A DNA stretch of 64,000 nt from a virus (lineage: Duplodnaviria; Caudoviricetes): positions 10,186 through 74,185 of IMG/VR virus record IMGVR_UViG_3300027804_000063; one strand, given 5' to 3'. Every line of letters begins with the position of its first letter. Positions within the stretch are counted from its first letter, which is position 1. Shown here piece by piece: positions 3,076 to 23,338 of the stretch. The notes under the pieces are model-generated. The model was not told the origin of the DNA, searched no databases, and saw nothing but the letters and a program-made list of their open reading frames with translations. Made by a program: the position numbers and the translations under genes.

Positions 3076-3092
3076 TTTATATACGCCACCGT

Positions 3093-4887: not shown

Positions 4888-4966
4888 ATTTTGTTACTCC
4901 ATTTCTAGTAGGTGTATTTATTGTAGCGGTTACAAAAATGTTTTGCAACCTAAAGCGGTTGGGTTT

Positions 4967-5323
4967 TTACACCCGAACCGCCCTACTAAGGATTTCTGCC
5001 TCAATCTCTTTTACAGGACGAGGACTCCAATGACAATCACGCTCAACCATAGGGATCGTGCCACCGAACCCACAGACTTGCTCTAGTTCTGAATACGAGA
5101 AGTATCCATACTCCATCTCAAAACCGTCCACGAGACCCCAAAAGGTGTCCTCGCCGTCAAACTCAACCGCATACCAAGTCCATTGGGAATACGGTGAGAA
5201 GAACTTGACCATTGCGATCGCTTCCTTCTCAGGGTGCTTCTCGCTGTTGTAAAGAGGAGGGAGTTTTTCCCTAATCTCTTGTGTCAAGAGTAGGTGCTTC
5301 CGTTTTGCTCTTTGTGTTTCCAT
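4967..5323 (-). CDS. DUF2958 family protein
   Basis: KFFSPYSQWTWYAVEFDGEDTFWGLVDGFEMEYGYFSYSELE. Confidence 0.8.
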   Translation of the reverse strand: METQRAKRKHLLLTQEIREKLPPLYNSEKHPEKEAIAMVKFFSPYSQWTWYAVEFDGEDTFWGLVDGFEMEYGYFSYSELEQVCGFGGTIPMVERDCHWSPRPVKEIEAEILSRAVRV

Positions 5324-5475
5324 CAGTTGATCTCCTTGTAGTCGCCGTTCCTGAGTTCCCTCAGGTTCGTGTAAATGATTACTTGTCCCTCGTTATCAAC
5401 ATCCATGTCACAAGTTGGGATAAGTTTTTCCAACTGCTTACGGAGTTTGTTCCCGTCAATCGTTTTCGTTTTCAT
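5323..5475 (-). CDS. Small hypothetical protein
   Basis: GAGGAG SD; coupled to the DUF2958 gene. Confidence 0.55.
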   Translation of the reverse strand: MKTKTIDGNKLRKQLEKLIPTCDMDVDNEGQVIIYTNLRELRNGDYKEIN

Positions 5476-5581
5476 TATTTTTGCTCCTCGCAATCGTGAC
5501 CATACCAATAGTCGTTTGCTTCATCCTCGTCACGCATATCAAATACGCGATCACATTCCTGACACTTCGCAACGGTTTTCA

Positions 5582-5917
5582 TTACGCCGTCTCAATCGTG
5601 TCTGTGTTTTGTTCAACGATCATTGCCCAAGTGGTCGCCCACCCTGCAACATCACGCAACCCAACGATCTCGCCTTCGGGTTCACGCTCTAACACATGAA
5701 GAAGTGTCGCCATGCGTGCGGTTGCGACAGAAAGAAGATCAAACTCCTCTTCCCACACATTCGCAACATAGTCGCCCCAAATCAACACAAACTTGTTGAA
5801 GTATTCGTCGTCGCGATCGGTTGTGACCACATAGACCTCCGCCGAGTCTGCTTGTAACTCAAACAGGATGTCCCCGAGTGGATACTTTTCAATGATCCCT
5901 TGCTTTAGTAATGACAT
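5582..5917 (-). CDS. Hypothetical protein
   Basis: AAGGAGA SD and own promoter at 5968-5985. Confidence 0.7.
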   Translation of the reverse strand: MSLLKQGIIEKYPLGDILFELQADSAEVYVVTTDRDDEYFNKFVLIWGDYVANVWEEEFDLLSVATARMATLLHVLEREPEGEIVGLRDVAGWATTWAMIVEQNTDTIETA

Positions 5918-5993
5918 TCTTTTCTCCTTGTTTAGTAGTTCTAGTTTCGGGTTTCCCCTCACCCATAAGAATAGGTGAGGGGTGTAACACGGT

Positions 5994-6350
5994 TTAGATG
6001 TCTTCGTCTTCTTGATCTTCGTCGTCTTCGTAGTCTTCCCAATCCGCGCCTTGTGGGATGAGATTTGTGAAACCGTCGTTCGGGTTTTCTTCGTTGGTTT
6101 CAACCGCGTGAACGAAACGCAAACTGCACGACTCGTTATACCACTTGACGATCATGTCATACATTTCTTGCGGTGTTCCCGTGAAGTTGCGATCATCACA
6201 ACTCACGCCGTTGTAGTTATCACGAAACCATTGCGCCTGACCTTCGTCCATTGCGACATAGATTTTGTGACAACCATCAAACGCGATCAGTTTCGCGGTT
6301 TCGGTTGCCTGTCTGACATCCTCAAACAGTTCGGTGAGTGTTGCATTCAT
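5994..6350 (-). CDS. Hypothetical protein with acidic tail
   Basis: AAGGAG SD and own promoter. Confidence 0.75.
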   Translation of the reverse strand: MNATLTELFEDVRQATETAKLIAFDGCHKIYVAMDEGQAQWFRDNYNGVSCDDRNFTGTPQEMYDMIVKWYNESCSLRFVHAVETNEENPNDGFTNLIPQGADWEDYEDDEDQEDEDI

Positions 6351-6430
6351 TTTCTGCTCCTTTGTTTAGTAGGTTTATTCGGGTGTTTGCCCTTCCCCCA
6401 TATTGTAGGGGAAGGGTGTAACACGGTTAT

Positions 6431-7066
6431 TTAGACGGACACTTCCTCGTCTTCCAACATTGCTTTGCATTGCGCTTCAATGCCGTCAAGGACATTCGTG
6501 ACACGCTCATATTGTGCGTCATAATCGTCTGCCTCAATCTCTGCGTCGCTCATTGACGGATATTCGCCCTCAATGTCTGCCACGACCACACCGTTGCGGA
6601 TCGCCACACCACCTAAGAACGCCATACCGCCCTCCTCGTAAGAGAGAACAAAGTCAAGTGTTGGGAACTGTTTGGACACATTGCGTATGCCCTCACAAAT
6701 CGGAGACCATGCGGTCATGAAAGTCATGTTCAGTTCGGTATCTGCGATCTGTCCGAACACACCGTCAAAGTCTGCCCACTTAGAACCGTAGTTCTTGCAG
6801 TTCCACTCATACCAATCGGGTGCGCCGAACTTTTCCATGTTCTTCTTGTTCATTGCTTCCATCTTGAGTTGCTTTTCTGAACCCTCACCATAGAAACCTT
6901 TTGGTGTTGCTGTCAGTTCCTCAGGTGTCGGGAACAAGTTGTCAAGAATACTGAACTGATTGTATTCCTTGCGTTCGTCCTCGTTCTTGATGATCGCTTC
7001 GTGGAAACGCTTGATCTCAGTCGCCTCCCCTGAAACGGTCAGGTTGTTAGTGCAATAGTTTGGCAT
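6431..7066 (-). CDS. DUF1281/YubB ferredoxin-like domain protein
   Basis: MPNYCTNNL...WYEWNCKNYGSKW...FMTAWSP...YEEGG. Confidence 0.8.
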   Translation of the reverse strand: MPNYCTNNLTVSGEATEIKRFHEAIIKNEDERKEYNQFSILDNLFPTPEELTATPKGFYGEGSEKQLKMEAMNKKNMEKFGAPDWYEWNCKNYGSKWADFDGVFGQIADTELNMTFMTAWSPICEGIRNVSKQFPTLDFVLSYEEGGMAFLGGVAIRNGVVVADIEGEYPSMSDAEIEADDYDAQYERVTNVLDGIEAQCKAMLEDEEVSV

Positions 7067-7461
7067 TACTTCTCCTTGTTTAGTTAGGTTTATTTGCTTG
7101 CCCCAACATTATGCATGATGGGTGTAACACAGTTATTTTTTAGTAGGTATTTTTTATTACTCTCACATTATATATCCGACAAAAACAAAAAGCAACTATT
7201 CCCCAAAACTATTTAGACCTAAATACGGAGCGATATTTAGAGCGAAATCTAGAGCGATCACTCAGCCCGACCAAATGCGATCCGTATTCAGGTTTATATG
7301 CGCCACCGTTCAGGTTAGATGCGAACAACCAACCATTGCTAACTAACAATCGTTGCAAACTAGTCCCGCATCAACAAAGCCCACCCCACAGCCCCGCCCC
7401 CCGCCGCAAGGCGCGGGACTAATGCTTGCGAACGGCTGTTCGCCCTACTACTATCGGGGCT

Positions 7462-7848
7462 ATGACAATCTCACGAACAGACAGATGGCAATACCGTTTC
7501 AATGCGCTCGTGCAATACACCAACAGAACAGGAACATCACTCGTTCCCGCGACACAGGTTGAAGTGTACGAAGGGAAGAATGTCGCGCTCGGCGCATGGG
7601 TCGCGTACAACCGTCAGCAGTATCGCGCAGGAGAACTACCGCTTGAGCGAAAGCAAGCGTTGGAGCAACTCGCAGGTTGGCATTGGGAGAAGCAGAAACC
7701 TGGCAGACGCTACGACATGACGCGAGACGCAGAGATCGCGAAGCGTTATCAGAGTGGTGAGCGCGTAGGAATGATCGCAGACAGTTTCAATCTGTCACGC
7801 CAACGGGTTCATCAAATCTTGAAAAAGGTTTCATCACCAAATGTCTGA
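7462..7848 (+). CDS. Helicase-associated (HA) domain plus C-terminal HTH protein
   Basis: WQYRFNALVQY...LGAWVAYNRQQY...ALEQLAGWHW, then RDAEI...FNLSRQRVHQIL. Confidence 0.75.
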   Translation: MTISRTDRWQYRFNALVQYTNRTGTSLVPATQVEVYEGKNVALGAWVAYNRQQYRAGELPLERKQALEQLAGWHWEKQKPGRRYDMTRDAEIAKRYQSGERVGMIADSFNLSRQRVHQILKKVSSPNV

Positions 7849-8185
7849 TTACGGTCATCAACACGACAAGCGCGATCATAACGCTTGGAAAAAGATGAGC
7901 GAATGGTCTCACAGCGTTCCTGATTACGAACTTGACGCATTGTGGGATGAAGACATTTGGAGCACAAATCTGCCACCTGTTGAGACGGGCGCACAGAAGT
8001 TTGGGAAGTTTCTTGTTGCGACACTCGGTCTCTTTATTGGTATCGCGCTCGTATCGGTTGTTTTCTATCAACTTGTTTTAGCGTTGGGTTTCACTGACAT
8101 CACTTTCCGTGAAGCGGTGATCGCAACTGTGTGTGTCGCGTTTATTCGTTACGCCGACGCAGGAGTGATGAAACAACTCCGATAA
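7841..8185 (+). CDS. Membrane protein
   Basis: Two hydrophobic segments; overlaps the upstream gene. Confidence 0.65.
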   Translation: MSDYGHQHDKRDHNAWKKMSEWSHSVPDYELDALWDEDIWSTNLPPVETGAQKFGKFLVATLGLFIGIALVSVVFYQLVLALGFTDITFREAVIATVCVAFIRYADAGVMKQLR

Positions 8186-8190
8186 ACACA

Positions 8191-8220
8191 TCAGGACGCA
8201 CCCTTGCGAGTGCGCCCTGA
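8191..8220. terminator. Hairpin between convergent genes
   Basis: TCAGGACGCAC...GTGCGCCCTGA. Confidence 0.55.
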
Positions 8221-8314
8221 GCGGAGAAGCGAAAGGTGAAAGGAGAAGTCCTTTCGTTCCTCTAGCGATACAGAATAACACATGAGTTATATGTCGTTCT
8301 GAAGCGATTAGGTT

Positions 8315-9808
8315 TTACCCCAATCGCTTTCCATTTAGTTTGAGATATGTTTCCTGCCAACATCTCGGATACCAACGGTTCGGTTTCTTGCCGACTGACA
8401 GTTGCTTCAACACCGCGAGACCGTCAGTGACATTGTGTGCCATAAACACTTTGTGCTTCAAGACTTCTTTTATGCAGTCCATTGCCAAGATGTCGTGGTA
8501 TCCACCGTATTGACCACCTGTGCCAAGACCGTGAACCTTGCCGTCAGTCACCCACACGATCGGTGTGGACGAACGCTTGCGTTGCTTCACTGCCCAACGG
8601 ATTGCTTCTCCGTCTACGCCGTTACCGCCGTTACGCTCGGGAAGTTTGTCAATCATTTTCCCGTTTTGTGCGAGAACGAGAAGGTTCGGTTTGACATTGT
8701 TTCGGTCTGCTGAATAAACCGCAACCGTGCAACCTGGACTTGCTTCCGTGATGTCAAGGATGTCTTTGTTAGTGAAAGACATTGAACCTGAACCGTCAAT
8801 CAGAACGATACCGCCGTTGCCTTTCTTGTATCGGTCAAACACACGCTTTTCGGGATCTGCGAGTGCGTTACCAATCCTGCGAGGGTTGCGACCCATGTTG
8901 CTCGCGACACGCTTGCGACCGAGACCGCCGTGCGCCTTGCGAGTGAGTGGGAGTGTTCCGACAATGAGTTTGCCCCAACTTGGAACAACACCATTGTTGC
9001 CCTTGCCGACTTCCGTAGGTCGTACCTTCTTTGGGTCTGCCTTTGGTTGTGCGTTGGTTGCGCCAACACCGCCCTTCCCGTCTTTCGTTGGGTCGTCCTT
9101 CTTTGGTTCGCCTTCGCCTTCCTTCTGACCGTTAGGTTCGTCCTGTTGCTCGTCCTCATCCTGTTGTGGTGGGTTCGCAAGACGATCTACCCACTCCGCA
9201 ATACGCTCGGTGTGAGAGAAACCGAAAGGTGCAAGACCGTGACGAGGGTCTACTTCGGTTGAACCGAGTGTTCCCGTCTTGAACGCCTTGACAAACTCTT
9301 TCTCAACCGCCTTGATGATCTCGCGCAATGTTTTCGCCCACGCAGGGTTCACACGCTTGACACCCGTGAGAAAATCTTTGCCACCACCACAGATTGAGTA
9401 ACCGACCGCGATATAAACCGCCTGTGTCCAATCACCTGCTTCTGCGATACGAACGCCTGACGCTTTCTCACTTCCGTCCGCGAGGAGATCAACATCAAAT
9501 CCTGCTTTCTTGATAAGAAAGTTCACGCGCACTTCCTCAACGACAGTCATTGCTTCCTCTGTCGCAATGCCACGCGCAATCCATTTCGGAAAATCATCCG
9601 CAGGTGAAAATCGTGCGTGTGCCATTTCGTGCGCACGGATAACTCGGTCAATCTGCTCGTCACCAACAGGAACAACCATGTGCTTCGTGACGACATTCGT
9701 CATTGGTTTGCCACGCACAGGTGCGCAAGTGTCTACGCGCCATACACCTGCGTCCTTATCTTTACGACCCAACATTTCGGGAAGTGGTCTGATTTCTACT
9801 TTCTGCAT
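8315..9808 (-). CDS. HExxH metallopeptidase-like plus vWA domain protein (MoxR partner)
   Basis: RAHEMAH; MIDAS motif DGSGS...VTDG; acidic linker. Confidence 0.8.
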   Translation of the reverse strand: MQKVEIRPLPEMLGRKDKDAGVWRVDTCAPVRGKPMTNVVTKHMVVPVGDEQIDRVIRAHEMAHARFSPADDFPKWIARGIATEEAMTVVEEVRVNFLIKKAGFDVDLLADGSEKASGVRIAEAGDWTQAVYIAVGYSICGGGKDFLTGVKRVNPAWAKTLREIIKAVEKEFVKAFKTGTLGSTEVDPRHGLAPFGFSHTERIAEWVDRLANPPQQDEDEQQDEPNGQKEGEGEPKKDDPTKDGKGGVGATNAQPKADPKKVRPTEVGKGNNGVVPSWGKLIVGTLPLTRKAHGGLGRKRVASNMGRNPRRIGNALADPEKRVFDRYKKGNGGIVLIDGSGSMSFTNKDILDITEASPGCTVAVYSADRNNVKPNLLVLAQNGKMIDKLPERNGGNGVDGEAIRWAVKQRKRSSTPIVWVTDGKVHGLGTGGQYGGYHDILAMDCIKEVLKHKVFMAHNVTDGLAVLKQLSVGKKPNRWYPRCWQETYLKLNGKRLG

Positions 9809-9898
9809 TTTTCCTTCTTTCGTTTCTAGGTTTATGTCTCTTGCTTAGGGAGACTTACTTACACCCCCCACTTTAGGTGAGGGGTGTAGTGGGGTTTA

Positions 9899-10642
9899 TT
9901 AGACCGCGACCTTGTTGATCGCGATTGCGTCCAAGACGCTTTCTGCCTGTCGCCCGAACACCATTCGTGCGCTGTCCTTGTCACCAAGTGTCTTTCGCAG
10001 TTGGTCAAATGCGTAGAAGGTGCGGAGTGAAATCCTGCGCTCTCCTGCGTCTGCCATACGAACCGCATACTCACGCAAGTCTGCCGACAACTTCTTGAGT
10101 GCGTCAGGGTGAGGTTGGTTGATACGGATTGCGACAGGGAAACGGTCTTTCAACGCTTCAGGGAGTTCCTCCATTGTCTCAATGTTTGTAGTCATAACGA
10201 CACTGAAACCGTCTTTCGGAGTGATCGTGCGTCCGTTTTCAGGACTTTCCCACTTCGCGCTTTCAGGACTATCGGTGAACGCGAGAAGTGTTGCGAACAC
10301 ATCCGCACCTGCCTTGTCAATCTCGTCAATGACGAGACGACCACCACGCAAACCGTCACCCTTCCATGCGGACACTGCCTTACCGTCCACCCAAGACCAA
10401 CCGCCTTCGCCGTTCATCTTGTAGTGACCCTCAACTTGCGCATTGGACATATCCTCTGTGCAAATGAGACGGAACGCTCCTGCGGTGACATCACCGTAGT
10501 TGAGACCTGCGAAGGTCTTGCCCGTTCCTGGGGGTCCGAACAGGATGAGACGATCTACTCCTGCCTTGAGTGCGTTCTCAACATCCTTCCAACACTGCGG
10601 AAGGTCGTTGCGCACCTCTCTCTCTGCGACTTGCTGTTCCAT
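9899..10642 (-). CDS. MoxR/CbbQ-type AAA+ ATPase
   Basis: GPPGTGKT, VIDEIDKA, MTTN, ALKDRF. Confidence 0.9.
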   Translation of the reverse strand: MEQQVAEREVRNDLPQCWKDVENALKAGVDRLILFGPPGTGKTFAGLNYGDVTAGAFRLICTEDMSNAQVEGHYKMNGEGGWSWVDGKAVSAWKGDGLRGGRLVIDEIDKAGADVFATLLAFTDSPESAKWESPENGRTITPKDGFSVVMTTNIETMEELPEALKDRFPVAIRINQPHPDALKKLSADLREYAVRMADAGERRISLRTFYAFDQLRKTLGDKDSARMVFGRQAESVLDAIAINKVAV

Positions 10643-10744
10643 TACTTTCCTTCTTTCTCCGAACCTTGTTCGGTCTAGTTGCTTATTTCTAGGTTTACTT
10701 GCCTTACACCCCCAACATTACATTGGGGGTGTAACAGGGTTTGA

Positions 10745-11152
10745 TTACGCGACTTGCGCTTCTGCGTCTGCGTTGCTCTCGGACTTTGCGCCCTTGAGTT
10801 CCGTGACACGGATTTGCTCGTATGCGGTGATCGTGGTTACTGCGTCTGCGACATCTGCCTTGATGACACCGACTTCCACTGCTGACTTGAACTTCTTTCC
10901 GTCCACTGCGAACTTGGTGACAGTCTTGAACACCTTGTCCGAAACGAGACCCTTCAAGAGTTCCACGCTGTATGAAGGACGCTCGCCCCTCACAACCGCG
11001 ACCTTTACTCCGTCCACGACTGCGTAGTCCACGCCTTCCTTTGCGAGTTCCAACTTGAAACTTGCTTCCGCTTGTGCGAGTTCCTGCTCTGCGATCGCCA
11101 ATGCTTCACGCTTTGCGAGAACTGACTTCGCTGTTGAGGTGATTAGTGCCAT
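10745..11152 (-). CDS. Hypothetical protein
   Basis: AAGGAGA SD and own promoter. Confidence 0.75.
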   Translation of the reverse strand: MALITSTAKSVLAKREALAIAEQELAQAEASFKLELAKEGVDYAVVDGVKVAVVRGERPSYSVELLKGLVSDKVFKTVTKFAVDGKKFKSAVEVGVIKADVADAVTTITAYEQIRVTELKGAKSESNADAEAQVA

Positions 11153-11295
11153 TTGATTTTCTCCTTATGTTTAGTTGGTTTATTTGCTTCTTGTCCACCA
11201 CTCTATATGAGGGGTGTAACACGGTTATTTCTATTTCGTACTGACTAACTATCTATGATAGATAGTCTAGTACCACTTTTGGGGGATTGCAACCT

Positions 11296-11571
11296 TTATT
11301 CCAAGATTTTTGAGATTTCTTGATCCATATTGGTCACAAACTCCTGAACCACATTTTCCTCATATTCCGCAACGATTTGTCGCGCAATCGGGTTCAAGAC
11401 CCGTGCGAGTTCCTGTGCTGTCCCTAACCGTTCTAACAGGGTTTCCTTGCGGTCGCTGTCGGTGTCAGGGTTCGTGGACTCTTTTGCGTCCTTGATTACC
11501 TGCCCACCTAATGCGGTTTGCAGAAGGAATACCTGATCTGCTGTTAGTCGGACTTCGTATCGCTTTGCCAT
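11296..11571 (-). CDS. Hypothetical protein
   Basis: ORF MAKRYEVRL... after an AAGG SD (start approximate). Confidence 0.55.
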   Translation of the reverse strand: MAKRYEVRLTADQVFLLQTALGGQVIKDAKESTNPDTDSDRKETLLERLGTAQELARVLNPIARQIVAEYEENVVQEFVTNMDQEISKILE

Positions 11572-11653
11572 TCTGTTTCCTTTCGGGTTGTTGTTGTTCA
11601 TACCTTTATTACGCAATGAGCCCCCAAAAGTGTGCGGTGTTTTTTAGAAAATC

Positions 11654-11686
11654 TTTTCCACAGGGTTATCCTCAACCTGTGGATAA
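11654..11686. promoter_or_regulatory. Cluster of three DnaA-box-like 9-mers
   Basis: TTTTCCACA-ggg-TTATCCTCA-acc-TGTGGATAA. Confidence 0.7.
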
Positions 11687-11874
11687 CTCGTTGAGGTTTA
11701 TATACGCCACCGTCCATGTTGGGAGATCACAGTCAGGATCGCTGATTCGTGCGCGCGCCCGCGCGTGAGCCCCGCATGGTTCTTCGCGAGAAGAAGAGCC
11801 CCGCACCCGCATCTTCAAACGCGGGACTAGGCAAAAAGAAAGGGGAGGCTTTCGCCCCCCCTCTTATTTTTTGA

Positions 11875-12012
11875 TTACTCCCAAGTAATCATTCCGTTTT
11901 CTGAGATGTAGGTTGGGAGTCCCATACTTTTGAGTTCCTCGTATGTGTAGGGATCTTTTTGGTTTTTGTTGATGTGATCAACATATCCCTTGTTTCTTTC
12001 TGCTTCTGTCAT
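11875..12012 (-). CDS. Small hypothetical protein
   Basis: AAGGAGA SD, promoter at 12052, terminator-like hairpin downstream. Confidence 0.55.
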   Translation of the reverse strand: MTEAERNKGYVDHINKNQKDPYTYEELKSMGLPTYISENGMITWE

Positions 12013-12447
12013 TTCTTCTCCTTGTTTTAGTTGTTCTTCCTTACATATATAACATTACTGTAAGGGTGTTGCACAGTATTGACGCACGGAGAACCTCAAA
12101 ATGTGTATGTCACACTTTATCTAACTAAGTGCGTTATATGTATGTAGGCAACAACGCCTACCAAAGCGTTAGGAGACGCAGTTGGAAATCAACTACGAAG
12201 CAATAAAAGAAATGCGAAAAGCGTTGAAGCAAGAAATTGCAAGAAACGGGATCAACGAAAACAACAGGCAGTGGGTTCACGAACTGCGAGTTGCGATTGA
12301 ACTTCGCGAAAGCGGTGTTTACTAAAACCACAAAGAAAACCCCAACTCAGAAATGGGTTGGGGTTCTTTTTTGCGTTAGCCCCGCGTCTGATGCACGCAT
12401 TCGCGTAGTCCCGACATCCGATGCGCGTAACGGGACTGAGACAAAAT

Positions 12448-12486
12448 AAAACCCGCAGAAGATGGCTGAGTTCTTCTGCGGGTTTT
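12448..12486. terminator. Bidirectional intrinsic terminator
   Basis: Perfect 14-bp stem AAAACCCGCAGAAG/CTTCTGCGGGTTTT. Confidence 0.8.
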
Positions 12487-12489
12487 GAT

Positions 12490-12699
12490 TTAGTTGGTTG
12501 TTTCGCGGACTACCTGAAACCGATCGCCTTCTTCGGTGATCATTCCGAGAGTGCTTCCGTTGTCCCATTTGATGTGAACCGTGCCAAGTCCGTCAATATG
12601 GGTGACGACACCTTCGTCTCCCCACTTCAACTTCGTGTACGGGTCGCCTGACCGCATAAACATTACGCGCTTACCGACATAACTTTCTTTGTCTGACAT
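12490..12699 (-). CDS. DUF4314 family protein
   Basis: GKRV...DPY..L..GDEGVVTHIDGLGTVHIKWDNGSTLG. Confidence 0.8.
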   Translation of the reverse strand: MSDKESYVGKRVMFMRSGDPYTKLKWGDEGVVTHIDGLGTVHIKWDNGSTLGMITEEGDRFQVVRETTN

Positions 12700-12923
12700 T
12701 AGTAGACCCCGAACGATATTCCGTCTGATGTCAGTCCGAACAACGCACCTGCGTCGTTTCCTTCTGTGTCCATTGACGGGTAAAGAATAGTTCCGCTAGA
12801 GAGAACGAGAACCATTGGTATCTCATTCTTGCGCCAACCTTCTTTGTCCATTTCTGCTTGTGTCATTGGTCGGATATCAACAACTGTTGATCCGACAATG
12901 GTGTCGTCTATTGTGTCGCTCAT
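12699..12923 (-). CDS. Hypothetical phage protein
   Basis: Coupled ORF with AGGAGA SD. Confidence 0.7.
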   Translation of the reverse strand: MSDTIDDTIVGSTVVDIRPMTQAEMDKEGWRKNEIPMVLVLSSGTILYPSMDTEGNDAGALFGLTSDGISFGVY

Positions 12924-12966
12924 TTACTTTCTCCTTTTGTTTAGGTTTATGTGAAGCGTCTCGCTG

Positions 12967-13221
12967 TTATGCGGACGCTTTTGGAAGTTTGAGACCTTTG
13001 AGTTCGCGTTCCAACTCTGCGCCCTCAACATTGTTCATTAGGTCAATGAGTTCATCTAACCAAGTCGCAACGGGGATAGGTAGTGGTGTGACACGGAGAT
13101 AGTCGTCGTACTTGGTGAGAACGCTATCTATCTCGCTCACTAATCCTGCGCCTTCAACATTGCGAACAATGTCAAAGATGTCGCGCAACAACTGTTTCCA
13201 ATCTTGGTTTACTGTTTTCAT
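12967..13221 (-). CDS. Hypothetical protein
   Basis: AAGGAGA SD and promoter at 13255. Confidence 0.7.
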   Translation of the reverse strand: MKTVNQDWKQLLRDIFDIVRNVEGAGLVSEIDSVLTKYDDYLRVTPLPIPVATWLDELIDLMNNVEGAELERELKGLKLPKASA

Positions 13222-13550
13222 TTGTGCTTCTCCTTTGTCTAGGTTTATATAACTATCTTACTGAAGCGGTGTGACAGGGTTATCCTGCCATCACCCGACT
13301 TGCTCCCACGATCCACAACAACGACACTTCCAACGCCCAATCCTTTTCAGGGTTCTGAGTGTAGAACTCGTACCATTGCTTCGCTTCGTTGAGACATTCG
13401 CTGACTGACATTATTGACCATCTCCATTCCATCTGAACCCACGACATTCTTGCTTGTTACGCTTCTTGCGCTTGTCTGCGACACGCTGTGCCTTCAGGAT
13501 ATTCCTATCCGCGAACGCTTGACGGTCTGCGTCATTCCATTTCTTATTCA

Positions 13551-14033
13551 TTAGAACCTTCTCCTGTTTCTCCGCCACTCGTGGCAGTCGTGCTTTGCTT
13601 GCTCATCTACTTCTGCTTGCGTCATCTTTGCCGTGATCAACGGACGGTATCCGCACGAGTTACACGCGATACCGAGATATTCGGTGACACCTTGTGCCAA
13701 CTGATATCCGTGAACCGCCGTGTTGCCGTGTGTTCGTTCGTTGAGATAAACCGTGATGAACACTTCACAGTTCGCGCAACCGATGATCTTGACATCTTTG
13801 CCGTTTGTCGGTGCTTGCTTCGTAAAGAAGTCAAACTTGAAGTGCTTACAGGTTTCGCATTTGTCGTCAAGTTTGCGTGACTTGACGATTTCTGTTTTGC
13901 CCTCTGTGATTACTGAATACTCTTGTGGGAGTATTCCTTTCAAGGTCGCTTGATGAATGAGGTGATTTCGCACCAACCATTCCGTGTAAGGCTTTGCAAC
14001 CTTTGCGACTTTGGTCTTTCCTTTCTTTGCCAT
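13551..14033 (-). CDS. Cys-rich Zn-binding hypothetical protein
   Basis: CETC, CANC and CNSC pairs; SD and promoter upstream. Confidence 0.75.
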   Translation of the reverse strand: MAKKGKTKVAKVAKPYTEWLVRNHLIHQATLKGILPQEYSVITEGKTEIVKSRKLDDKCETCKHFKFDFFTKQAPTNGKDVKIIGCANCEVFITVYLNERTHGNTAVHGYQLAQGVTEYLGIACNSCGYRPLITAKMTQAEVDEQAKHDCHEWRRNRRRF

Positions 14034-14168
14034 TTCTAGTTTCTCCTTGTTTAGGTTTATCTAACTCGCTACTTACACTATATACGCACGGTGTCATATA
14101 GTTTGTGTCATTTATAGACCTAATAATAAATATACTTCTAATATATCAGGGGCATAATATACCCACAC

Positions 14169-14189
14169 TTATCCACAGGCTGTGAATAA
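14169..14189. promoter_or_regulatory. Inverted DnaA-box pair
   Basis: TTATCCACA-ggc-TGTGAATAA; both fit TTWTNCACA. Confidence 0.75.
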
Positions 14190-14616
14190 CTAGATCACCC
14201 AACTCCACTTAGCACTAAATACAAAAACACAGCAGTTATATACGCCACCGTTCAAGTTGGGGTTGATGTCACGACATCACGACAGCAGATCCGCGATCCG
14301 CCAGCCCACAGCCCCGCGCCCATCTTCCGATGCGCGGGACTCACAAGTCTCGGCTTGTTCTTCGGGACTGTAGGATGCGTTTATGCCCCATCCATTCCGT
14401 CCGCGTAAAGAATCCCATAACTTGCAGATCGTTGAGATCATTGACGCGATCGCTCAAACTGAGCCCGAACTATTTGGCGTTGGGACTGCAACACTTATGC
14501 CCGTCAAGCACTCCGCACGGCTCACACTTGCAGACGATCTGCACCCCTACTATCAGCCCCTAACGCAAAATAGCCCGCCTACCGAACGGCAGACGGGCTA
14601 ATTGTTTGAGTGCTAG

Positions 14617-15104
14617 TTACTTCGGTTGCGCCTCACTCCATAGGTGTCTAAATACGAACTTCGGAATCGGATGCCCGTCGTTCGTAAAGTAGTAACCATT
14701 CTCAAGTGTTGAATGATCGGGAATAGTTACGATCTGACGCTTGCTAACACGCCCACCATACCAATACCCAACGATAAAGATATTGTGATCGCTTGTCGTC
14801 TCCCATTGCCAACGCGACTTACCGACATACCCCTTATAGGTAAGTTGAGTGCTCACGACTGCACCCACCCGTTAGGTGTGCGCATTGCGTATAGATACGG
14901 TATGACGCTCAGAATGAGATCGGTAAGTGCCTGCGACACTTCATCCCGACTAGTTGCCATACCGTGAATGAAGTCGTCGTCAATGCGCCCATGAATGAGA
15001 TCATCCACGATCGCGCCAATAACTCCGATACCTATCGCACCTATGCCGAGATAATTCTCCGCAAGGACTTCGCTAATAGATACCGTCTCCGTAATGTCTG
15101 ACAT
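14617..15104 (-). CDS. Two small hypothetical ORFs (14853-15104 and 14617-~14850)
   Basis: Adjacent ORFs on the dominant strand. Confidence 0.55.
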
Positions 15105-15208
15105 AAATTGCCCTTCGTGTAGTAGTTGCTTAGTAATCGGCTTACGCCTTGTGCCTAGTTGGAATTGAATCCCACGCCGAACGCGCTAGGCGACTCACCT
15201 AGTGAGTG

Positions 15209-15646
15209 TTACGCACCGTGTGCGCCGTCTCCACCCATTGAGATAAGTGTCGCACGCTCCCACACTTCACGCACTTGCTCACTCGCACCCGAGAGACCAT
15301 TGTTGAGATAGTCAATGACACGACTCTCAAACTCGCCCAACGCCTTCGCGCTATAACGCGCGATCGGTTGAGTTGCAACCGTGCCACACGGATAGTTCAC
15401 CGTGTCAAAAATTGTGAACTTCACGACTTCGTAACCGTTGCCACGATCGTAGTGTGCATAACGGATATGCGCACTGAATTGCTTGCGATCTGAATCATGC
15501 GAGATACTCAACTTGACTAGTCCGCCAACTTGCTCACCGTCAAACTGAATTGACTGCGAAGGACTGCGCCAAGTGTAAGAGACTTCACGATCGCCCACCT
15601 TGCGAGTGGCTTGTGCGAAGTTCGCACCTTGAGTAATAACCGACAT
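15209..15646 (-). CDS. Hypothetical protein
   Basis: GGGAG SD and promoter at 15696. Confidence 0.7.
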   Translation of the reverse strand: MSVITQGANFAQATRKVGDREVSYTWRSPSQSIQFDGEQVGGLVKLSISHDSDRKQFSAHIRYAHYDRGNGYEVVKFTIFDTVNYPCGTVATQPIARYSAKALGEFESRVIDYLNNGLSGASEQVREVWERATLISMGGDGAHGA

Positions 15647-15986
15647 TATTTGCTCCCTTGTCTAGTAAATATAAGCGGAATTGCTTATACAAATAACTAT
15701 ACGCAAGGGGTGTTGCATAGTGTGACTGCACACGATCAGGTAAATAAGTGAGATATCGCTCATCCGCCATAGCCCGAGATCGGTATCTACGATCGTAGAT
15801 ATTTTGTATCCGCCACCGTTCAGGTTGGGGACTTCAGATCCGCCCCTCCCCGCGACGCGCGTCCGCGCCCGCGAGCCCCGCGCGCTGAATTGTTGGCGCG
15901 GGACTGATGCGGTTTATGCCATCTTCAGACAGTTGATCTTCAGATCAGATCAAAAGCCCCGCGCGCGTCTTCGTGTGACGGGGCTG

Positions 15987-16310
15987 TCAAGTCCAAATGA
16001 TCTTCGCAACTCCCCAGCGCTGCAGAGCCGCTTCGCATCTTTTACACGGCTTTGAGTTGGCGGGCAAACCATTGGCAAGAACTCGGGCAACATACACAGT
16101 CGCACCCGATATTTGAGACCCTGCCGATATCGCTCCTGCTATCTCTGCGTGGATATGCGACCTACGCCAAGCGTGGTGAACATCTCCGACACGCTTATTG
16201 GTGGCTTTGGCTACAACACGCCCGTTACGCACCACAACGCACCCGTGGCGGTGTCTACACCTGCTCTGAAGGGCTGTAGCGACCGCTGTGCGGAGATGAT
16301 GCTTGGACAT
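15987..16310 (-). CDS. Zn-dependent cytidine/dCMP deaminase-fold protein
   Basis: HAE and SKPCKRC motifs. Confidence 0.85.
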   Translation of the reverse strand: MSKHHLRTAVATALQSRCRHRHGCVVVRNGRVVAKATNKRVGDVHHAWRRSHIHAEIAGAISAGSQISGATVYVARVLANGLPANSKPCKRCEAALQRWGVAKIIWT

Positions 16311-16347
16311 AGGTTGGCATAGTTTATATGCCGACCCTAGAAACGCA

Positions 16348-16382
16348 AAAAGCCCCCACCCCGACAGAAGGGTGAGGGCTTG
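16348..16382 (-). terminator. Intrinsic terminator
   Basis: AAAAGCCCCCACCC...GGGTGAGGGCTT. Confidence 0.6.
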
Positions 16383-16396
16383 CGCCTGTGTGTGGA

Positions 16397-16813
16397 TTAC
16401 GCCGAGAGTGCTTCCACCTTCGCGCGAACATTCGCGATATTGGTGAAATGCTTGTCACCTGCGGGGGTGGTGAAACCGACCTTGATGACACCGTAACCGT
16501 CCTCTTGGGGTGCGACCCAAAAGACCACGCCGACCGTGCCCTTAGGAACTTTGCGCCCCTTGAACACCTCAACGGTTTGACCCTTGACGATTTCGCCGTT
16601 CGCGATCGCCTGTGCGAGACGCTCCTCGTTGAGACGGACGACTTCCGCCCAACGCGCGACCTGCTCCTCCGTGTGCCTGTGTGGTTGCTTCCAACGACCC
16701 ACACCACCCTCGTATACCTGACCTGCGCGCTCCGCGAGATAACGCACACCGTTACGGTTAGTGTCCCAAAACACCTCCGCACCGCACCCGCGACAACTGA
16801 TTACTTTGCTCAT
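16397..16813 (-). CDS. Hypothetical protein with KOW/SH3-like C-terminus
   Basis: CRGC; GQTVEVFKGRKVPKGTVGVVFW. Confidence 0.7.
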   Translation of the reverse strand: MSKVISCRGCGAEVFWDTNRNGVRYLAERAGQVYEGGVGRWKQPHRHTEEQVARWAEVVRLNEERLAQAIANGEIVKGQTVEVFKGRKVPKGTVGVVFWVAPQEDGYGVIKVGFTTPAGDKHFTNIANVRAKVEALSA

Positions 16814-17344
16814 ATGCCCTCCTTAGGGGTCTAGTAGTTACTACAGACATTACGCACAGGGTGTCACAGAGTGTGACTTGGATAAACCTAAACGGCGAAG
16901 CCGCTTTGTGACCGTGCGAAGCCGCTCGGCAGCGTCACCAAGCCGCTCGGCAGCGCTGGCTTTCCGCGTTCCGCAGCGCTGGCTTTCCCTCCTCACAGCC
17001 CCGCAAACCGCGTAACTACGCGGGACTAGCAGGTTGGCGACAAACAGTAGCGTTTGGGGAGGACCTCCCGCAGGACCTGACGCGGAGGACCCGACGAAAC
17101 GTTCAAAAAACGTCAGTTTTTGCACGTTTTTGCTGGTTTTAGAAAAACGCGTTTTTACAACTTTTTTTGCGGTTTTTGAAAGCCTTATTTTATAAGGGTT
17201 TTACGGAGGGTGTTTTTGGGAACTTTCCCACCCAACTCAGAAAACCATCAAAAACGTCACTTTTTGATCAACCCGGCTGCCAGGTCCGTCTTCAGCCCGG
17301 GAAGATGCGGTTACAGTCCCGAAGATCTGTCGCTGATGCGGGGC

Positions 17345-17545
17345 TCAGAAGAGAGTTGGTGCGTCATCAAACGCGTTACGCGACTCTGTGCAGATGCGGT
17401 GGGCGTAACCAAGTGGGGTTGAAGGGTTGCGAGGTGCGCCAATGTATCTTCCGTCTTTGTGTTCTATCCAAGACAGTATCTTGACGCAGTATTGGGTGTT
17501 GAGGGTGTCAAACTCTATGTTGCAGATGGAGCAGGCGACTTTCAT
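17345..17545 (-). CDS. Small Zn-finger-like protein
   Basis: CSIC...HRIC. Confidence 0.55.
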   Translation of the reverse strand: MKVACSICNIEFDTLNTQYCVKILSWIEHKDGRYIGAPRNPSTPLGYAHRICTESRNAFDDAPTLF

Positions 17546-17710
17546 GCCTGTCAGACTAGCGGATTTAGTTTTGTGGTGCGCTGTCTACGGACAGTTCGTT
17601 GTGTGACCGTAGGTCTAACAGCAGATCAACCATCTCTGCGGAGGACACTAGTTCCCGACCCGAGATGGTTTTGATCGCGTTGTCAATGACCTGAACAACT
17701 GTGAGTTCTT

Positions 17711-18166
17711 TTACTGTATCTGTGACCATTGTTCATCGTCCTCAATGATTTCTGATGCGCTGAGAACCATGCCGTCTAGTTCAAAATCAACACAGTTCAA
17801 CCAACCATCAACTATACCGTCTCCGTATGCGTAGAGATCAAACCACGCATTATTGACCCACTCAATGCGCTCTGCTTCATCTGCTTCACGCAACTTTTGG
17901 TCGGTGTCAATACCTGCGCGCATGAGACGGTCGCAGTAACGGATAACTTCAGGGTCGTCACCACGCTCTCGTGCTTCTTTGCTTTCCCAAAGGTTGAGAC
18001 GCATTTCGCCGTCGCAGAACACTCTGACTTCACGGTCGCCCATTGTGACGGTCGCGATGTGTTGATGTGCGTTTGCGTCCCAAACATAGAACGCAGGGTC
18101 TTGTCGGTGCTTCCGATCTTCGTCTGTCACCTCATAGGTGATTTTGATGTCGGGTTTAGTTTCCAT
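17711..18166 (-). CDS. Hypothetical protein
   Basis: AAGGAGA SD and promoter at 18196. Confidence 0.75.
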   Translation of the reverse strand: METKPDIKITYEVTDEDRKHRQDPAFYVWDANAHQHIATVTMGDREVRVFCDGEMRLNLWESKEARERGDDPEVIRYCDRLMRAGIDTDQKLREADEAERIEWVNNAWFDLYAYGDGIVDGWLNCVDFELDGMVLSASEIIEDDEQWSQIQ

Positions 18167-18368
18167 TTACTTCTCCTTGTCTAGTAGTTGATGCAAGAAT
18201 ACCCGAAGGGTGTCGCAGGGTTATTCGTAAAAAGGTTCAGCGGGTTTCTGTCTCGGGGTCGGGTTGTTTCGTGCGAGTTTGCGTATCTGATACAACGCAA
18301 ACAAAATAGGGACACCGAAGAACGCCACCAAGATCATCTTGATACCCAAGACGACACCTAAGACACGC

Positions 18369-19484
18369 TTATTCACGGACACCAACCAAGTTCAACGCTT
18401 CGTCTAGTTGCATTGTGGTTTTGATGGAGTGATCGCCGTCGTATGCGACTGTCACAAAGTTCGCACCTTGTGACGGGTCTTTCGCTAACGCACAGATTTC
18501 TCCGTATGCCTGAACGATCGCGTCTAAATGATCGTCTGCCTCATACACCATCTGCCAAGTGACCAAGTATGATTTGCTCATACGCTGAGGTCTGCCTGCC
18601 ACGCGAACATTGGGGAAACGCCAAGTTCATCTTTGATACAACGGAGGGTAACTTCTGTATCAACTTTGTACTGTTCCAACAACGCGAGGGTGTCTGCGAG
18701 TTTGAGTTTGTCGCTCTCTATCTGAGAACGAAGTTCATAAACTTGCTTTGACAAACTCTCAAATGTTTGCTTGTTTCTACGGAGTTTCATTACTTGTCTG
18801 CCTTTCGGTCTGCTTGTGGATCTCTTACTTCATACCGACGACCCTCACGCTTGATGAAGATGTCGGGTCTATCTGTAACAACCTTGCGTGCTGTCGCTTC
18901 GGATACTTCTCCGATTTCTGCGAGTTGCTTGATAGTCACCAACTCAAAGACATTGTCTTTCGCCCACGACAAAATGTCGTTCTTGCCGTCTTGCGCCGTG
19001 CGCCAACCTTCGCTGTGCTCTGCGTTCGCCAACAGTTCCGCTTTGATGTGTGACGGAACAATGTCACGGACACGCTTCGCCACATGTGCAACCCAAACGG
19101 GTGTTCCGTATACACGGATCGCTTCTGTGACTTCGCGTATCGCGCTGTCAAGTTCTGTGTCTAGTTCGTTACTCATAGTATCTACTATACGCAACGGGTG
19201 TGACAAAGTGTGCGATGCCATTAGAACAAGTCCTTTTCGTCTTGAAGAAAGTCAGGAACAACTAGTCCCTTTTGCGCCTCTATACACGCACTCTCCGCTT
19301 CGTATATTGACTTCTTGACTTGCGCCAATGCGTTCTTGTATACCGCACTTTGGTTTGCTTCGTCGGTTCGTAAAAGTTCCGACACAACAAGATCGTATGC
19401 AGTATTCAGAGATCGCAATACCCGACTAAGACTGAGATAGTCCTCGTCAAAGATTTGTTTGATCGTGTTCTGTGTTTCAGTCAC
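18369..19484 (-). CDS. Run of four small hypothetical ORFs (18369-~18590, 18578-18790, 18790-19176, 19221-19484)
   Basis: Coupled ORFs; 19176 start is apparently leaderless after -10 TATAGT; TTGCTT-N17-TATAAT promoter near 19530-19560. Confidence 0.65.
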
Positions 19485-19780
19485 TATCTTTTTATACCCC
19501 TTTCAGAGTTCTAGGTTTATCTAACACTACCATTATATATACCCCCACAACAAAAAGCAACCCCACCCCAAACATTTGTTTGCCCACCTCCCCAAAAACT
19601 TTTATATCCGCCACCGTTCGGTTTGCAGAACACTTCTGAGATCCCTCCGCGCCCCCGCCCGTCGGCTCAGGCTCACAGCCCCGCGTTTCTCTTCAGATGA
19701 CGGGGCTCCCGGGTTTGATCCCGGCTTGCATTCTGGTTGGGAGTCAGATAAACTACAAGAACTAGAAAAAGGGGGTCGTT

Positions 19781-20380
19781 TTGGCTCAAATTGAGTTAGA
19801 AATATTAGAAGAAGTCAGCAAATATTGGGTTTCCTTCCGCAAAAAGGAAAATATTCAGCAGAACTCGTGCATCTTGGCGTGCAACTTCGTGCGTCAAATC
19901 TTGATCCGCATGGGTGTAGACCACGAGGTTGTCCCCATCGGGACTACGGTCTTCAACCGCAGAGGTTGGGAACTGTTCGGTCTTGCAAACAACCAACTGC
20001 CTGACGACGCATGGCAAGTCCATTGTTCAAGCGCATCTTTGGGCAGAGGTTTCGGTGGTCATGTTGTAATCCAAACGAAGAACTATTTTTTTGATCCGAC
20101 AGCAGGCGCGTTCTCCCGACCTGAGCACGGCATGACCGTCCCCGAAACTTTGATAGTCCCGTTGGCGAAGATGGAAGTTCACAAACGGGACTCCAACACT
20201 CACCCTGTTCATGTTGTGTTTCGTACCAACAAGTTTTGGACTTTCCCGATCGGGTCGGGGTTGTATTCGTATTACTTTGAGAAGTGGAACACGATTTATC
20301 GTAAGTCACCCGATTGGCAGGTCTCACCGAAGCAGTTAGGGATACCTGACATAGTTGCGGAGATGCGTAAGGGTTCTTGA
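19781..20380 (+). CDS. Transglutaminase/papain-like fold protein (putative Cys-His-Asp triad)
   Basis: NSCILAC...GGHVV...FFDPTAG. Confidence 0.5.
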   Translation: MAQIELEILEEVSKYWVSFRKKENIQQNSCILACNFVRQILIRMGVDHEVVPIGTTVFNRRGWELFGLANNQLPDDAWQVHCSSASLGRGFGGHVVIQTKNYFFDPTAGAFSRPEHGMTVPETLIVPLAKMEVHKRDSNTHPVHVVFRTNKFWTFPIGSGLYSYYFEKWNTIYRKSPDWQVSPKQLGIPDIVAEMRKGS

Positions 20381-21391: not shown

Positions 21392-23338
21392 GTGTCAGAG
21401 AAATATCTTTTCCTAGCCGACGACCATCTCGTTTCAACCTCGCCATACGACCGAGAAGAAGTTGAACAGATCAAAGCGATTGACGGCGCAAAGTGGGACA
21501 AAATCGCTAAAGCGTGGCGTATCCCAATGTCTTCAGTTGTTGAAGCGCGGGACTTCGCAACCCGAAACGGGTTCACCATAGATCCTCAGGTTCTGACCTT
21601 TGATCTTCCCGAGAAACTCAACCCAACCAACGGAATAACTTTAGAAAAAGAGTTCATTTACCTGTCTTTTGCTTATGACCCCGTAAAAGTCAAAGCAGTC
21701 AAGCAAATCCCGAGCGTAACTTGGCACGCAAAAACGAAAGCGTGGCGTGCACCCGTAGCAAGCATCACCGAATGTATTGAATGGGCGGAGAAGTTCAACC
21801 AACAAGTCCCAACAAACCTAAAAGAGATGGCGACCCAACTGAAGGAAGTGCATGATGCGTCCGTGCAACAGTCCCGATCAACAGATGCGGATCTAGAAGT
21901 CGCGGGACTGCCACTTCTTCCATACCAGCGAGCCGGAGTGAAATACGCGTCGGAGGCAAAAAGATGCTTCATCGCAGACGACATGGGGTTGGGAAAAACT
22001 TTGCAAGCGATCGCAACTTTGGAATATGTGTGGGGTTCCTACCCTGCTGTTGTGGTTTGCCCACCGAACTTGGTGTTGAATTGGCAGAAAGAATACGCCA
22101 AATGGCTACCCGAAAGGACAGTCGTAACGGTTGTAGACCGTAAAACTTTTCCTGAACACAAAGACTTTGATGTTCTTGTTATTGGTTACTCTAACATCTC
22201 GCATTGGCAAAAGCAAATCACCAACCTCAACTTCAGGTCAGTCGTCTTTGATGAGTCACATTATGTGAAATCTCCGACGTCGCAGCGAACCAAAGCCGCG
22301 ATCAAGATCGCCAGAACAGCCCCGCGTGATGGCATCGTGTTGTGTCTGACCGGGACTCCTGTGACGAACAGACCAGCAGAGTACGCATCTCAGTTGGATG
22401 TGTTGGGGAAATTAAACGCGTTCGGCGGACTTTGGGGTTTTTACCGAAGGTATTGCGGTGCTTTCCGCGACAGATTCGGTCAATGGAACATCAACGGCAA
22501 CTCAAACTTAGATGAACTCAACGAAAGATTGCGTGGGAACTGCTACATCCGAAGAACCAAAGAACAGGTCCTGAAGGATCTTCCTCCCGTGCGGCACGCC
22601 AATATCGTCGTGTCCGGGAGCCCCGCGCAGATGGAAGAGTACCGTAAAGCAGAGCGGGACATCGTGGAATATTTGGTGGAACGCGCCAAACAGATCGCGT
22701 TGGAGATCGGTAAATCACCCGGGTCCGCTGCGGTTGTTGCACGCATCAAAGCCGAATCAAACGAACATTTGGTTCGTATTTCTGTGTTACGACGGCTAGC
22801 AGCAAAAGCAAAAATGGACTCAGTTGTTGAGTTTATTGAGGCGCACCGAGACGCAGGTTTGAAAGTTGTTGTCGCAGCACATCACCGAGACGTTGTTGAT
22901 GAACTCGCAAACAAGTTTGGGGGACTCAAGATCCAAGGAGGGATGCTGGTCTCAGATGTTGAAGAAGCGAAGTCCCGTTTCCAAGAAGAACCAACCGAAG
23001 ATGCACCCGTGATTGTGCTCAGCATCCAAGCCGCCAAAACTGGACACACGTTGACGGCAGCCCAAGACGTTCTTTTTGTTGAACTTCCGTGGACACCCGC
23101 AGATGTAGACCAAACATATAGTCGTTGCCACCGCTTGGGACAGCAGGGTTCTGTGACCGCAACATATTTGTTGTGCGAAGGAACTGTTGATGAGGAGATC
23201 TACAACCTGATCAGCCGCAAACGCGGGGTTGTTGATGCGGCGACGGATGGCGGGGCTGTGGAGCGAAAGCAGGAGTCGGTTGGTCAGATGATCGTCGGAT
23301 TGTTTGCACGGAGGGGACTTGATGGCATACAGTTCTGA
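21392..23338 (+). CDS. SNF2-family helicase with two N-terminal HARP-like domains (SMARCAL1-like)
   Basis: ADDMGLGKT, DESH, LTGTP, QTYSRCHRLGQ; two (P/A)YD...W....KAWR.P repeats. Confidence 0.9.
   Translation: MSEKYLFLADDHLVSTSPYDREEVEQIKAIDGAKWDKIAKAWRIPMSSVVEARDFATRNGFTIDPQVLTFDLPEKLNPTNGITLEKEFIYLSFAYDPVKVKAVKQIPSVTWHAKTKAWRAPVASITECIEWAEKFNQQVPTNLKEMATQLKEVHDASVQQSRSTDADLEVAGLPLLPYQRAGVKYASEAKRCFIADDMGLGKTLQAIATLEYVWGSYPAVVVCPPNLVLNWQKEYAKWLPERTVVTVVDRKTFPEHKDFDVLVIGYSNISHWQKQITNLNFRSVVFDESHYVKSPTSQRTKAAIKIARTAPRDGIVLCLTGTPVTNRPAEYASQLDVLGKLNAFGGLWGFYRRYCGAFRDRFGQWNINGNSNLDELNERLRGNCYIRRTKEQVLKDLPPVRHANIVVSGSPAQMEEYRKAERDIVEYLVERAKQIALEIGKSPGSAAVVARIKAESNEHLVRISVLRRLAAKAKMDSVVEFIEAHRDAGLKVVVAAHHRDVVDELANKFGGLKIQGGMLVSDVEEAKSRFQEEPTEDAPVIVLSIQAAKTGHTLTAAQDVLFVELPWTPADVDQTYSRCHRLGQQGSVTATYLLCEGTVDEEIYNLISRKRGVVDAATDGGAVERKQESVGQMIVGLFARRGLDGIQF

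Follow-up and report, generated by a model that had tools for sequence, protein, structure and literature searches.

Within a 64,000-nt window of the virus record IMGVR_UViG_3300027804_000063 (bases 10186-74185 of 74,185 bp), nine inverted sites are found in which two short arms of fixed sequence enclose a variable core of 17 or 18 nt, and the question raised by this locus is what kind of signal these sites constitute and what might read them. The nine sites are paired copies of a strictly conserved seven-base word, AGYCCCG, whose distribution over the phage genome, spacing and conservation are described here together with the readings that they allow.

The record, with a completeness of ~52%, is about half of the genome of an uncultured freshwater phage of ~140 kb. 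The window encodes a class II ribonucleotide reductase, a primase-helicase, an SNF2-family helicase, a DUF932 protein, a single-stranded DNA-binding protein (SSB) and a ParB_N protein, as well as several DNA methyltransferases and the major head protein. The nearest cultured relatives of the head protein and the helicase belong to actinophages (of Brevibacterium, Gordonia and Arthrobacter) with an identity of only 35-47%, and a megablast search of the site region against cultured phages gave no match. Many close uncultured relatives exist, including the near-complete G001 (138 kb) and G002 (145 kb), and G005 is a complete, more distant relative of 128.6 kb. The phages that bear the heptamer form a widespread family of ~130-145-kb freshwater phages with no cultured member.

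A seven-base word confined to one block

A regular-expression scan combined with fixed-gap pattern searches recovered exactly nine AGYCCCG-N17/18-CGGGRCT sites at the window positions listed in the initial annotation: six have a spacer of 17 nt (7390, 12407, 15955, 16997, 17315 and 19677) and three a spacer of 18 nt (11797, 14310 and 15874), the number expected from 100 dinucleotide-preserving shuffles being 0.00. The unpaired half-sites reported nearby are also present (2234, 2312, 2356, 2431, 7362, 11768 and 12378, three of them shifted by one base from the numbers first given), and further half-sites were located at 2199, 2384, 7455 and 14363, together with three convergent pairs of longer spacer that had been missed (20155, N24; 21870, N26; 22318, N26). 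The words TCTTC and GATG recur in the cores as described, each in four of the nine. Three related genomes contain 8, 6 and 7 sites with spacers of 16-18 nt and no copy of a control pattern, and the pooled spacers of the relatives are 17 nt (n=27), 18 nt (n=13) or 16 nt (n=2), with minor classes at 24 and 26-27 nt; a peak at 45-48 nt is due to the optional third heptamer, which lies 28-29 nt beyond the pair. A broad distribution of spacer lengths had been named in advance as the result that would speak against the observation, and since the distribution in the relatives is sharp, the observation stands.

The word itself is far more frequent than its pairs. There are 23 and 27 copies on the two strands, 50 in all, against ~4.5 and 4.2 expected, and all of the copies of AGYCCCG/CGGGRCT in the 74-kb record lie between 2199 and 31152, a domain which comprises the leftward early operons and the rightward replication genes. 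Inside this domain 50 copies stand against 4-5 expected, and the other 45 kb of the record have none against 4-6 expected. The same confinement is seen in G001, with 49 heptamers within 28.5 kb and none in the remaining 110 kb (7.5-14 expected), and in G005, with 61 within 33.8 kb and none in the remaining 95 kb (9-14 expected). Outside the block GTCCCG is absent (15.5 expected) and GCCCCG occurs once (14.8 expected); both rank in the seven most avoided hexamers there, beside words that are evidently restriction sites. One-mismatch variants of the word occur at background frequency (0-8 copies each, against 28 + 22 for the word), which argues that the sequence itself is read and not just a stem. 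Besides, 26 of the 50 heptamers are unpaired in this genome, as are 21 of 23 in the distant clade L126, so that over half of the copies here can form no local hairpin.

The position of the copies with respect to genes differs along the block. Heptamers of the early operons are exclusively intergenic, and those between 19.9 and 31.2 kb (9 on the plus strand and 12 on the minus strand) occur in both orientations within genes. The SNF2-family helicase gene (21392-23338, plus strand, assigned with Pfam) contains eight of them, distributed over the two strands and every reading frame, against 0.59 expected from codon shuffling; among these are the convergent N26 pairs at 21870-21909 and 22318-22357. 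SNF2 orthologues of ~80% identity keep 5-7 of the eight heptamers, whereas random 7-mers survive at 24-28%. In a clade whose SNF2 protein is 62% identical none of the eight positions is kept and the density is equal (1.35-1.9 per kb), all 23 heptamers being of the C variant (AGCCCCG) and 21 of them single. The intragenic copies are thus under selection at the DNA level.

Spacing between neighbouring copies follows clear rules. Convergent neighbours lie 23-25 bp (n=60) or 31-34 bp (n=26) apart and direct neighbours 27-29 bp (n=30), and divergent neighbours keep a distance of at least 56 bp. Three genomes with differing site positions have very few gaps of 45-215 bp (0, 2 and 1, against 5.5, 10.1 and 5.6 expected) and an excess of gaps of 216-470 bp.

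The strand composition of the block borders is also peculiar. In all three genomes, 1-kb windows with an extreme skew of A+C versus G+T (|skew| at least 0.25) occur only at the two borders of the heptamer block: at 1-815 and 30816-33815 here, at ~27-31 kb and 62-64 kb in G001, and at ~83 kb and ~119 kb in G005. In the first 800 nt (1-800) the plus strand is nearly pure A/C, and its open reading frames (ORFs) translate to low-complexity strings of P, T, N, H and K.

Intergenic cassettes of the early region

Between ~2.5 and 19.5 kb the genes lie on the minus strand, and for five of the nine pairs a conserved box of like orientation, followed by genes, lies 48-81 nt downstream. Ten such promoter-like boxes of 26 nt, CCAACnTGAACGGTGGCGnATATAAA, all co-oriented on the minus strand and each ahead of genes, are distributed over 1824-19626, their GAACGG elements starting at 19619, 15821, 14253, 11715, 7311, 3643, 3094, 2561, 2150 and 1842. 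The boxes contain TATATAAA and do not fit the sigma-70 layout of -35 and -10 elements with a 17-bp spacer; some of them are followed by an ATG within 0-6 nt. Across the relatives, 42 of 43 boxes have their closest upstream heptamer in the same orientation, and 48-57 nt separate the end of that heptamer from the box in this genome. The cassette layout is kept in G005 with a diverged box, CGACGGTGGCGTATAGC.

The statement that the pairs are not ordinary terminators is borne out. Instead of a GC-rich stem with a loop of 3-8 nt and an immediate 3' U-tract, loops of 15-16 nt are found, and the claimed lack of a U-tract is correct for eight of the nine sites, the exception being 15955, which is followed by UUUU on the coding (minus) strand. 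A terminator scan located canonical terminators elsewhere within the same intergenic regions, of the hairpin-plus-U type and 8-10 nt upstream of pairs 11797 and 12407, the latter pair being bracketed by terminator-like hairpins that face it from both sides. From these terminators, the coupling of pair and box and the overall layout, it follows that the repeated unit is a cassette made up of a terminator (present in part of the cassettes), a pair, an optional third heptamer, a linker, a box and a gene. When orthologous cassettes of five phages are aligned, no change is seen in the arms AGTCCCGC and GCGGGGCT; core and linkers vary freely, and the spacer keeps its length of 17-18 nt.

At the left border, a cluster at 2199-2437 has two plus-strand copies (2199 and 2234) facing four minus-strand copies (2312, 2356, 2384 and 2431) across an AT-rich centre, and is placed between two promoter-like boxes; in alignment with G001 single copies have been gained or lost and the cluster itself is kept. 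A possible structured RNA at this cluster was rejected: its nested pairing barely exceeds that of shuffled sequences (z = -2.4) and is not conserved in G001. The cassettes from here up to the pair at 16997 are on the minus strand. The one at 7362-7461 contains the N17 pair 7390-7420 and the single heptamers 7362 and 7455, and its box starts 50 nt past the nearest heptamer. At 11768-11828 the N18 pair 11797-11828 is accompanied by a third heptamer (11768) and preceded at 10 nt by a canonical terminator (11839-11864, minus sense); its orthologues align with unchanged arms around a differing core. The unit at 12378-12437 has the N17 pair 12407-12437 and a third heptamer (12378) between the terminator-like hairpins mentioned above. 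In one relative (L114, positions 900-1050) precisely the 29 nt that separate the two direct heptamers of this unit are missing, a loss that is expected from unequal recombination between them. The proposal of a recombinase site has no evidence in its favour: no inversions were seen between relatives, and this deletion is the sole rearrangement observed.

Further along, the N18 pair 14310-14341 with heptamer 14363 (14310-14369) is followed by a box 56 nt further, and two tandem pairs, 15955-15985 (N17) and 15874-15905 (N18), occupy 15874-15985 with a box 52 nt further; the pair 15955-15985 begins 2 nt past a stop codon. The pair at 16997-17027 (N17) has no box within 140 nt, and where other cassettes have one, short tandem direct repeats follow (GGAAAGCCAGCGCTGC twice and GCTGCCGAGCGGCTT twice, at 16850-16995 on the minus strand). 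The pair at 17315-17345 (N17, plus strand) shows the opposite polarity, with T/G on the plus strand, and abuts the stop codon of ORF 17345-17545. A perfect C-G pair at 19677-19707 (N17, minus strand) stands at the head of the leftward early region, its box starting 57 nt further, and beyond it a convergent pair with a 24-nt spacer (20155-20192) is also present in relatives. Two other motifs are common to cassettes: GCATAAAC(C)GCATC, directly before heptamers 14363 and 15899 (14370-14385 and 15906-15925, minus strand), and GAAGATG/CATCTTC, repeated in cores and flanks of several of them. Nothing points to the cores targeting other sequences.

How the word may be read

From the motif, geometry, conservation and distribution shown above we infer that the word is read by a protein, as duplex DNA, and with an effect on transcription. 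AGYCCCG is accordingly put forward, tentatively and with slightly less than even confidence, as an operator word present in many copies, through which a sequence-specific DNA-binding protein would control the early and replication block. In the early operons each pair is part of a repeated intergenic cassette, a GC-rich linker of 48-57 nt separating the heptamers from the box, with the gene after it. Two protomers would bind 24-25 bp apart, centre to centre, with co-operative extension onto the third copy, and once bound they would determine how active the neighbouring promoter is or stop read-through into it. Some 35 further copies, in and between the replication genes and on both strands, are hardly ever 45-215 bp apart; through them the same protein could influence the block as a whole, be it as a roadblock or by bridging or looping, and the remaining genome, kept free of the word, would be immune to it. 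The suggestion of a dimeric-protein site made in the initial annotation is thus the favoured one, with the change that the unit is one 7-bp word, found without a partner and within genes as well.

Since no bacterial genome shows the element, its reader is probably encoded by the phage. A host-derived repeat was discarded: among 185,579 species genomes the pair was found as 12 singletons in unrelated taxa, about the number expected by chance, without local enrichment. Two phage proteins are candidate leads, not evidence. One is an RHH-like (ribbon-helix-helix) protein of 61 amino acids (aa), encoded at 718-903 in the operon behind the box with the largest upstream heptamer cluster and conserved in G005; it has no match in PDB or Pfam, and its single-sequence fold (pLDDT 57) is compatible with a strand-helix-helix arrangement and uninformative. 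The other is the ParB_N protein, whose gene is also conserved in G005. A reader of the LuxR/DosR type was rejected, the only trace of one being a sub-threshold helix-turn-helix (HTH) in a 213-aa protein, with GerE at 16.5-18.8 bits against a Pfam cut-off of 23.5. This protein (42427-43068, plus strand), encoded directly after the primase-helicase gene, has a weak N-terminal HTH like that of sigma region 4 or LuxR and resembles gene 1 of Gordonia phage Jace; its PHROG 645 label 'RNase E' looks like a misnomer. As for an RNA polymerase or sigma factor that might serve the box, no PF00940 or PF04542 match was obtained in the record and two near-complete relatives, a weak negative given that the PF00940 control matched nowhere.

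Several observations weigh against an operator. Among the pairs oriented with a box, 30 of 44 have the T/G combination, 7 have C/G, 4 have T/A and only 3 have C/A; this bias allows pairing in the sense RNA and usually not in the antisense, and such an asymmetry is not predicted by a symmetric dimer on duplex DNA. The first interior position, which would be the eighth base pair, shows weak covariation, with pairing in 50 of 60 cases (45.4 ± 1.8 under the null), and for six of the nine hairpins the coding-strand form is the more stable by 2.6-10 kcal/mol. Moreover, a centre-to-centre distance of 24-25 bp corresponds to 2.3 helical turns and the 31-34 bp class lies in a different phase, so that a rigid dimer cannot fit all pairs. 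Finally, no binding protein was found, and no test links the RHH-like, ParB_N or HTH candidates to the word.

These same features of strand and stability count in favour of an RNA explanation. The pairs would then be hairpins of the sense transcript, whose 8-bp stem has a U·G wobble as its third pair and encloses a loop of 15-16 nt. They would be recognised by a protein or nuclease, or else would serve for factor-dependent termination or for stabilising 3' ends where the early operons end. The U·G bias tracks the coding strand to the left and right of ~19.7 kb, where the genes diverge, the polarity flipping with gene direction; 15955 and 17315 abut stop codons, UUUU following the former; and fold z-scores reach -2.4 to -3.9 at most sites. 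It is this sense-strand bias which keeps alive the stem-loop with a variable loop considered at the outset, although its interior is neither conserved nor paired in register, which also led to the rejection of an acceptor-stem/T-arm minihelix (7 + 17 + 7 nt). The majority of heptamers are single, however, with no local pairing, and the intragenic copies use both strands; the distant clade has the C variant only, hence no wobble, and wobble-compatible arm variants are not enriched. Transcripts are already ended by canonical terminators 8-10 nt before two of the pairs, and there is no RNA rationale for a loop of fixed length with free sequence. The nested pairing of the border cluster is not conserved in G001, an Rfam scan of the window gave no match at the gathering score and an ARAGORN scan of the window found no tRNA or tmRNA. 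The RNA explanation is the main rival, though of fairly low probability, and a DNA operator is weighed above it, on account of these points and also of the restriction to one block with avoidance outside, the spacing of direct repeats, the excluded range of 45-215 bp and the turnover of sites. A minor place is given to mobile cassettes, in which the units would be repeated mainly by mutual recombination that shuffles small early genes, the hairpin being a generic terminator and the arms a product of gene conversion. The recurrence of a terminator or stem-loop plus promoter between small ORFan genes, the further short motifs common to cassettes and the L114 deletion exactly between two direct heptamers are consistent with it, and the architecture agrees with that described for T4-like phages (PMC2839356, PMC4122927). 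Yet gene conversion would homogenise cores and linkers too, and only the 7-8-nt arms are invariant; the heptamers in conserved genes, the avoidance outside the block and the spacing rules are likewise left unexplained, and this explanation is considered the least probable of all.

A role in replication or DNA handling seems hardly more probable. The word would then be an initiator-binding site or a priming or loading site, the border cluster being an origin, or an organising mark of the ParB/MatP kind. The convergent arrays of the border cluster about an AT-rich centre fit such a role, as do the SNF2 helicase, DUF932 and SSB genes in the block, the ParB_N protein encoded nearby, the quasi-regular spacing and, in three genomes, the bracketing of the block by the only extreme switches of strand composition. 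Priming sites would nevertheless be needed over the whole genome and not in one quarter of it, the tight positional link between heptamer and box indicates transcription, and the ParB_N protein is tied to the word by no test. Readings of the word as a Chi-like or primase site were set aside, as they leave unexplained the exclusive convergent order, the fixed spacer and the restriction to one block. A broader proposal is that AGYCCCG marks a domain of the phage chromosome: a reader would recognise a ~30-kb block through ~50-60 quasi-regular copies, the block being bounded by the two strand-composition switches and selection purging the word from the other ~100 kb. Restriction of the word to one domain, its avoidance elsewhere, the rule of spacing and the composition switches on either side of the block leave room for such a chromosome-organising role, which is considered possible, on a level with the RNA hairpins and behind the operator.

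Known systems, genome context and significance

In several phages, tens of copies of one short site allow a single protein to silence much of the genome, as in the case of stoperators, the C1 sites of P1 and the conserved inverted repeats (CIRs) of phiC31. Stoperators of Cluster A mycobacteriophages such as L5 are 13 bp long, asymmetric, in one orientation with respect to transcription and mostly intergenic over the whole genome. They are the closest in logic to the word described here, with its many copies of one site over many transcription units; they differ in their single orientation, whereas both orientations occur here in genes, and the present word is of 7 bp, has fixed pair geometries and is found in one block only, with avoidance in the rest of the genome. 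Cellular systems with known readers also offer parallels, namely the uptake sequences DUS and USS, read by the uptake machinery, and matS, read by MatP. The likeness lies in a word selected as DNA, single in genes and in hairpin-like inverted pairs between genes, or in its confinement to one domain, and the spacing, more even than random, recalls that of DUS/USS. To our knowledge, nothing comparable to DUS/USS or matS has been described for a phage genome. The hairpin promoters of the N4 type have a stem of 5-7 bp and a loop of 3 nt and are read by a phage RNA polymerase; the loops here are of 15-16 nt, and no T7-like RNA polymerase domain was detected in the record or two near-complete relatives, where the family control matched nowhere and absence is thus not proven. 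A likeness of the arms to the stems of type I-E CRISPR repeats was set aside given loops of 15-16 nt and not 4.

The cassettes themselves resemble two phage elements. Promoter-early stem-loop (PeSL) cassettes of T4-like phages consist of a stem-loop and an early promoter between small variable early genes (PMC2839356, PMC4122927), and five of the nine pairs here likewise form a small composite of stem-loop and then promoter repeated between early genes. The differences are that the present phages belong to another lineage (relatives of actinophages), that the box does not fit a sigma-70 layout, and that only arms of 7-8 nt around a spacer of 17-18 nt are conserved, the word being also found in conserved coding genes and absent elsewhere in the genome. 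On the other hand, the start-associated sequences (SAS) and their extended form (ESAS) in Cluster K mycobacteriophages comprise an asymmetric box upstream of genes with inverted repeats before about half of the copies and a variable spacer (PMC3203893). The ESAS arms are imperfect and 17 bp long, with a spacer of 4-13 bp, and lie immediately upstream of a 13-bp box, GGGATAGGAGCCC, at the start codon (PMC3203893). Like these elements of actinophages, the present cassettes have inverted repeats preceding a conserved box upstream of genes; sequence, arm length (7-8 bp and exact here), spacer (17-18 nt here) and distances all differ, and the present box starts 48-57 nt away at a variable distance from the start codon. 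The cassettes work like PeSL and resemble ESAS/SAS but lack the defining features of the latter and seemingly also those of the former. Lastly, the DosR box of Mycobacterium, TTSGGGACTWWAGTCCCSAA, has the half-site SGGGACT/AGTCCCS (PMC2275270), identical to the T variant of the heptamer; an HTH of the LuxR/NarL type is thus able to read a word of this kind. The DosR order CGGGACT-2 bp-AGTCCCG is not found here, where no divergent pair is closer than 56 bp and the GerE match is below the cut-off.

Other features of these genomes deserve mention. Next to the head gene there is an ORF of 1140 aa (58777-62199, minus strand) for which Pfam and PHROG searches gave no match, and beside it a gene for a 587-aa protein with DUF3721 (56751-58514, minus strand). 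Restriction-site avoidance is extreme in the record and in the relatives G001, G005 and L114-L140, and it differs among close relatives: TCGA and AGCT are absent from 110 kb of G001 (~640 and ~630 expected), and TCGA is common in some relatives and absent from others. GGCC, CCGG, ACGT, CCWGG, GCWGC and CTGCAG are strongly depleted in the record and its relatives; GATC is missing from G005, and in G001 its density inside the heptamer block is twice that outside.

Repeated intergenic motifs of phages are already known and their readers seldom are. The heptamer provides an unusually clean case with testable rules: an exact 7-bp word, fixed pair geometries, a roughly ten-fold enrichment in one block and an excluded spacing range, to which are added complete absence from the rest of three genomes and selection inside conserved genes as well. 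If the word marks a domain, it would be a phage counterpart of organisation of the matS/parS type or of domain-wide silencing, beyond promoter operators. If a protein reads it, that protein would be a master switch or organiser of the early and replication programme in this family of freshwater phages, and the heptamer could also act as a bioinformatic marker for the family and its early block.

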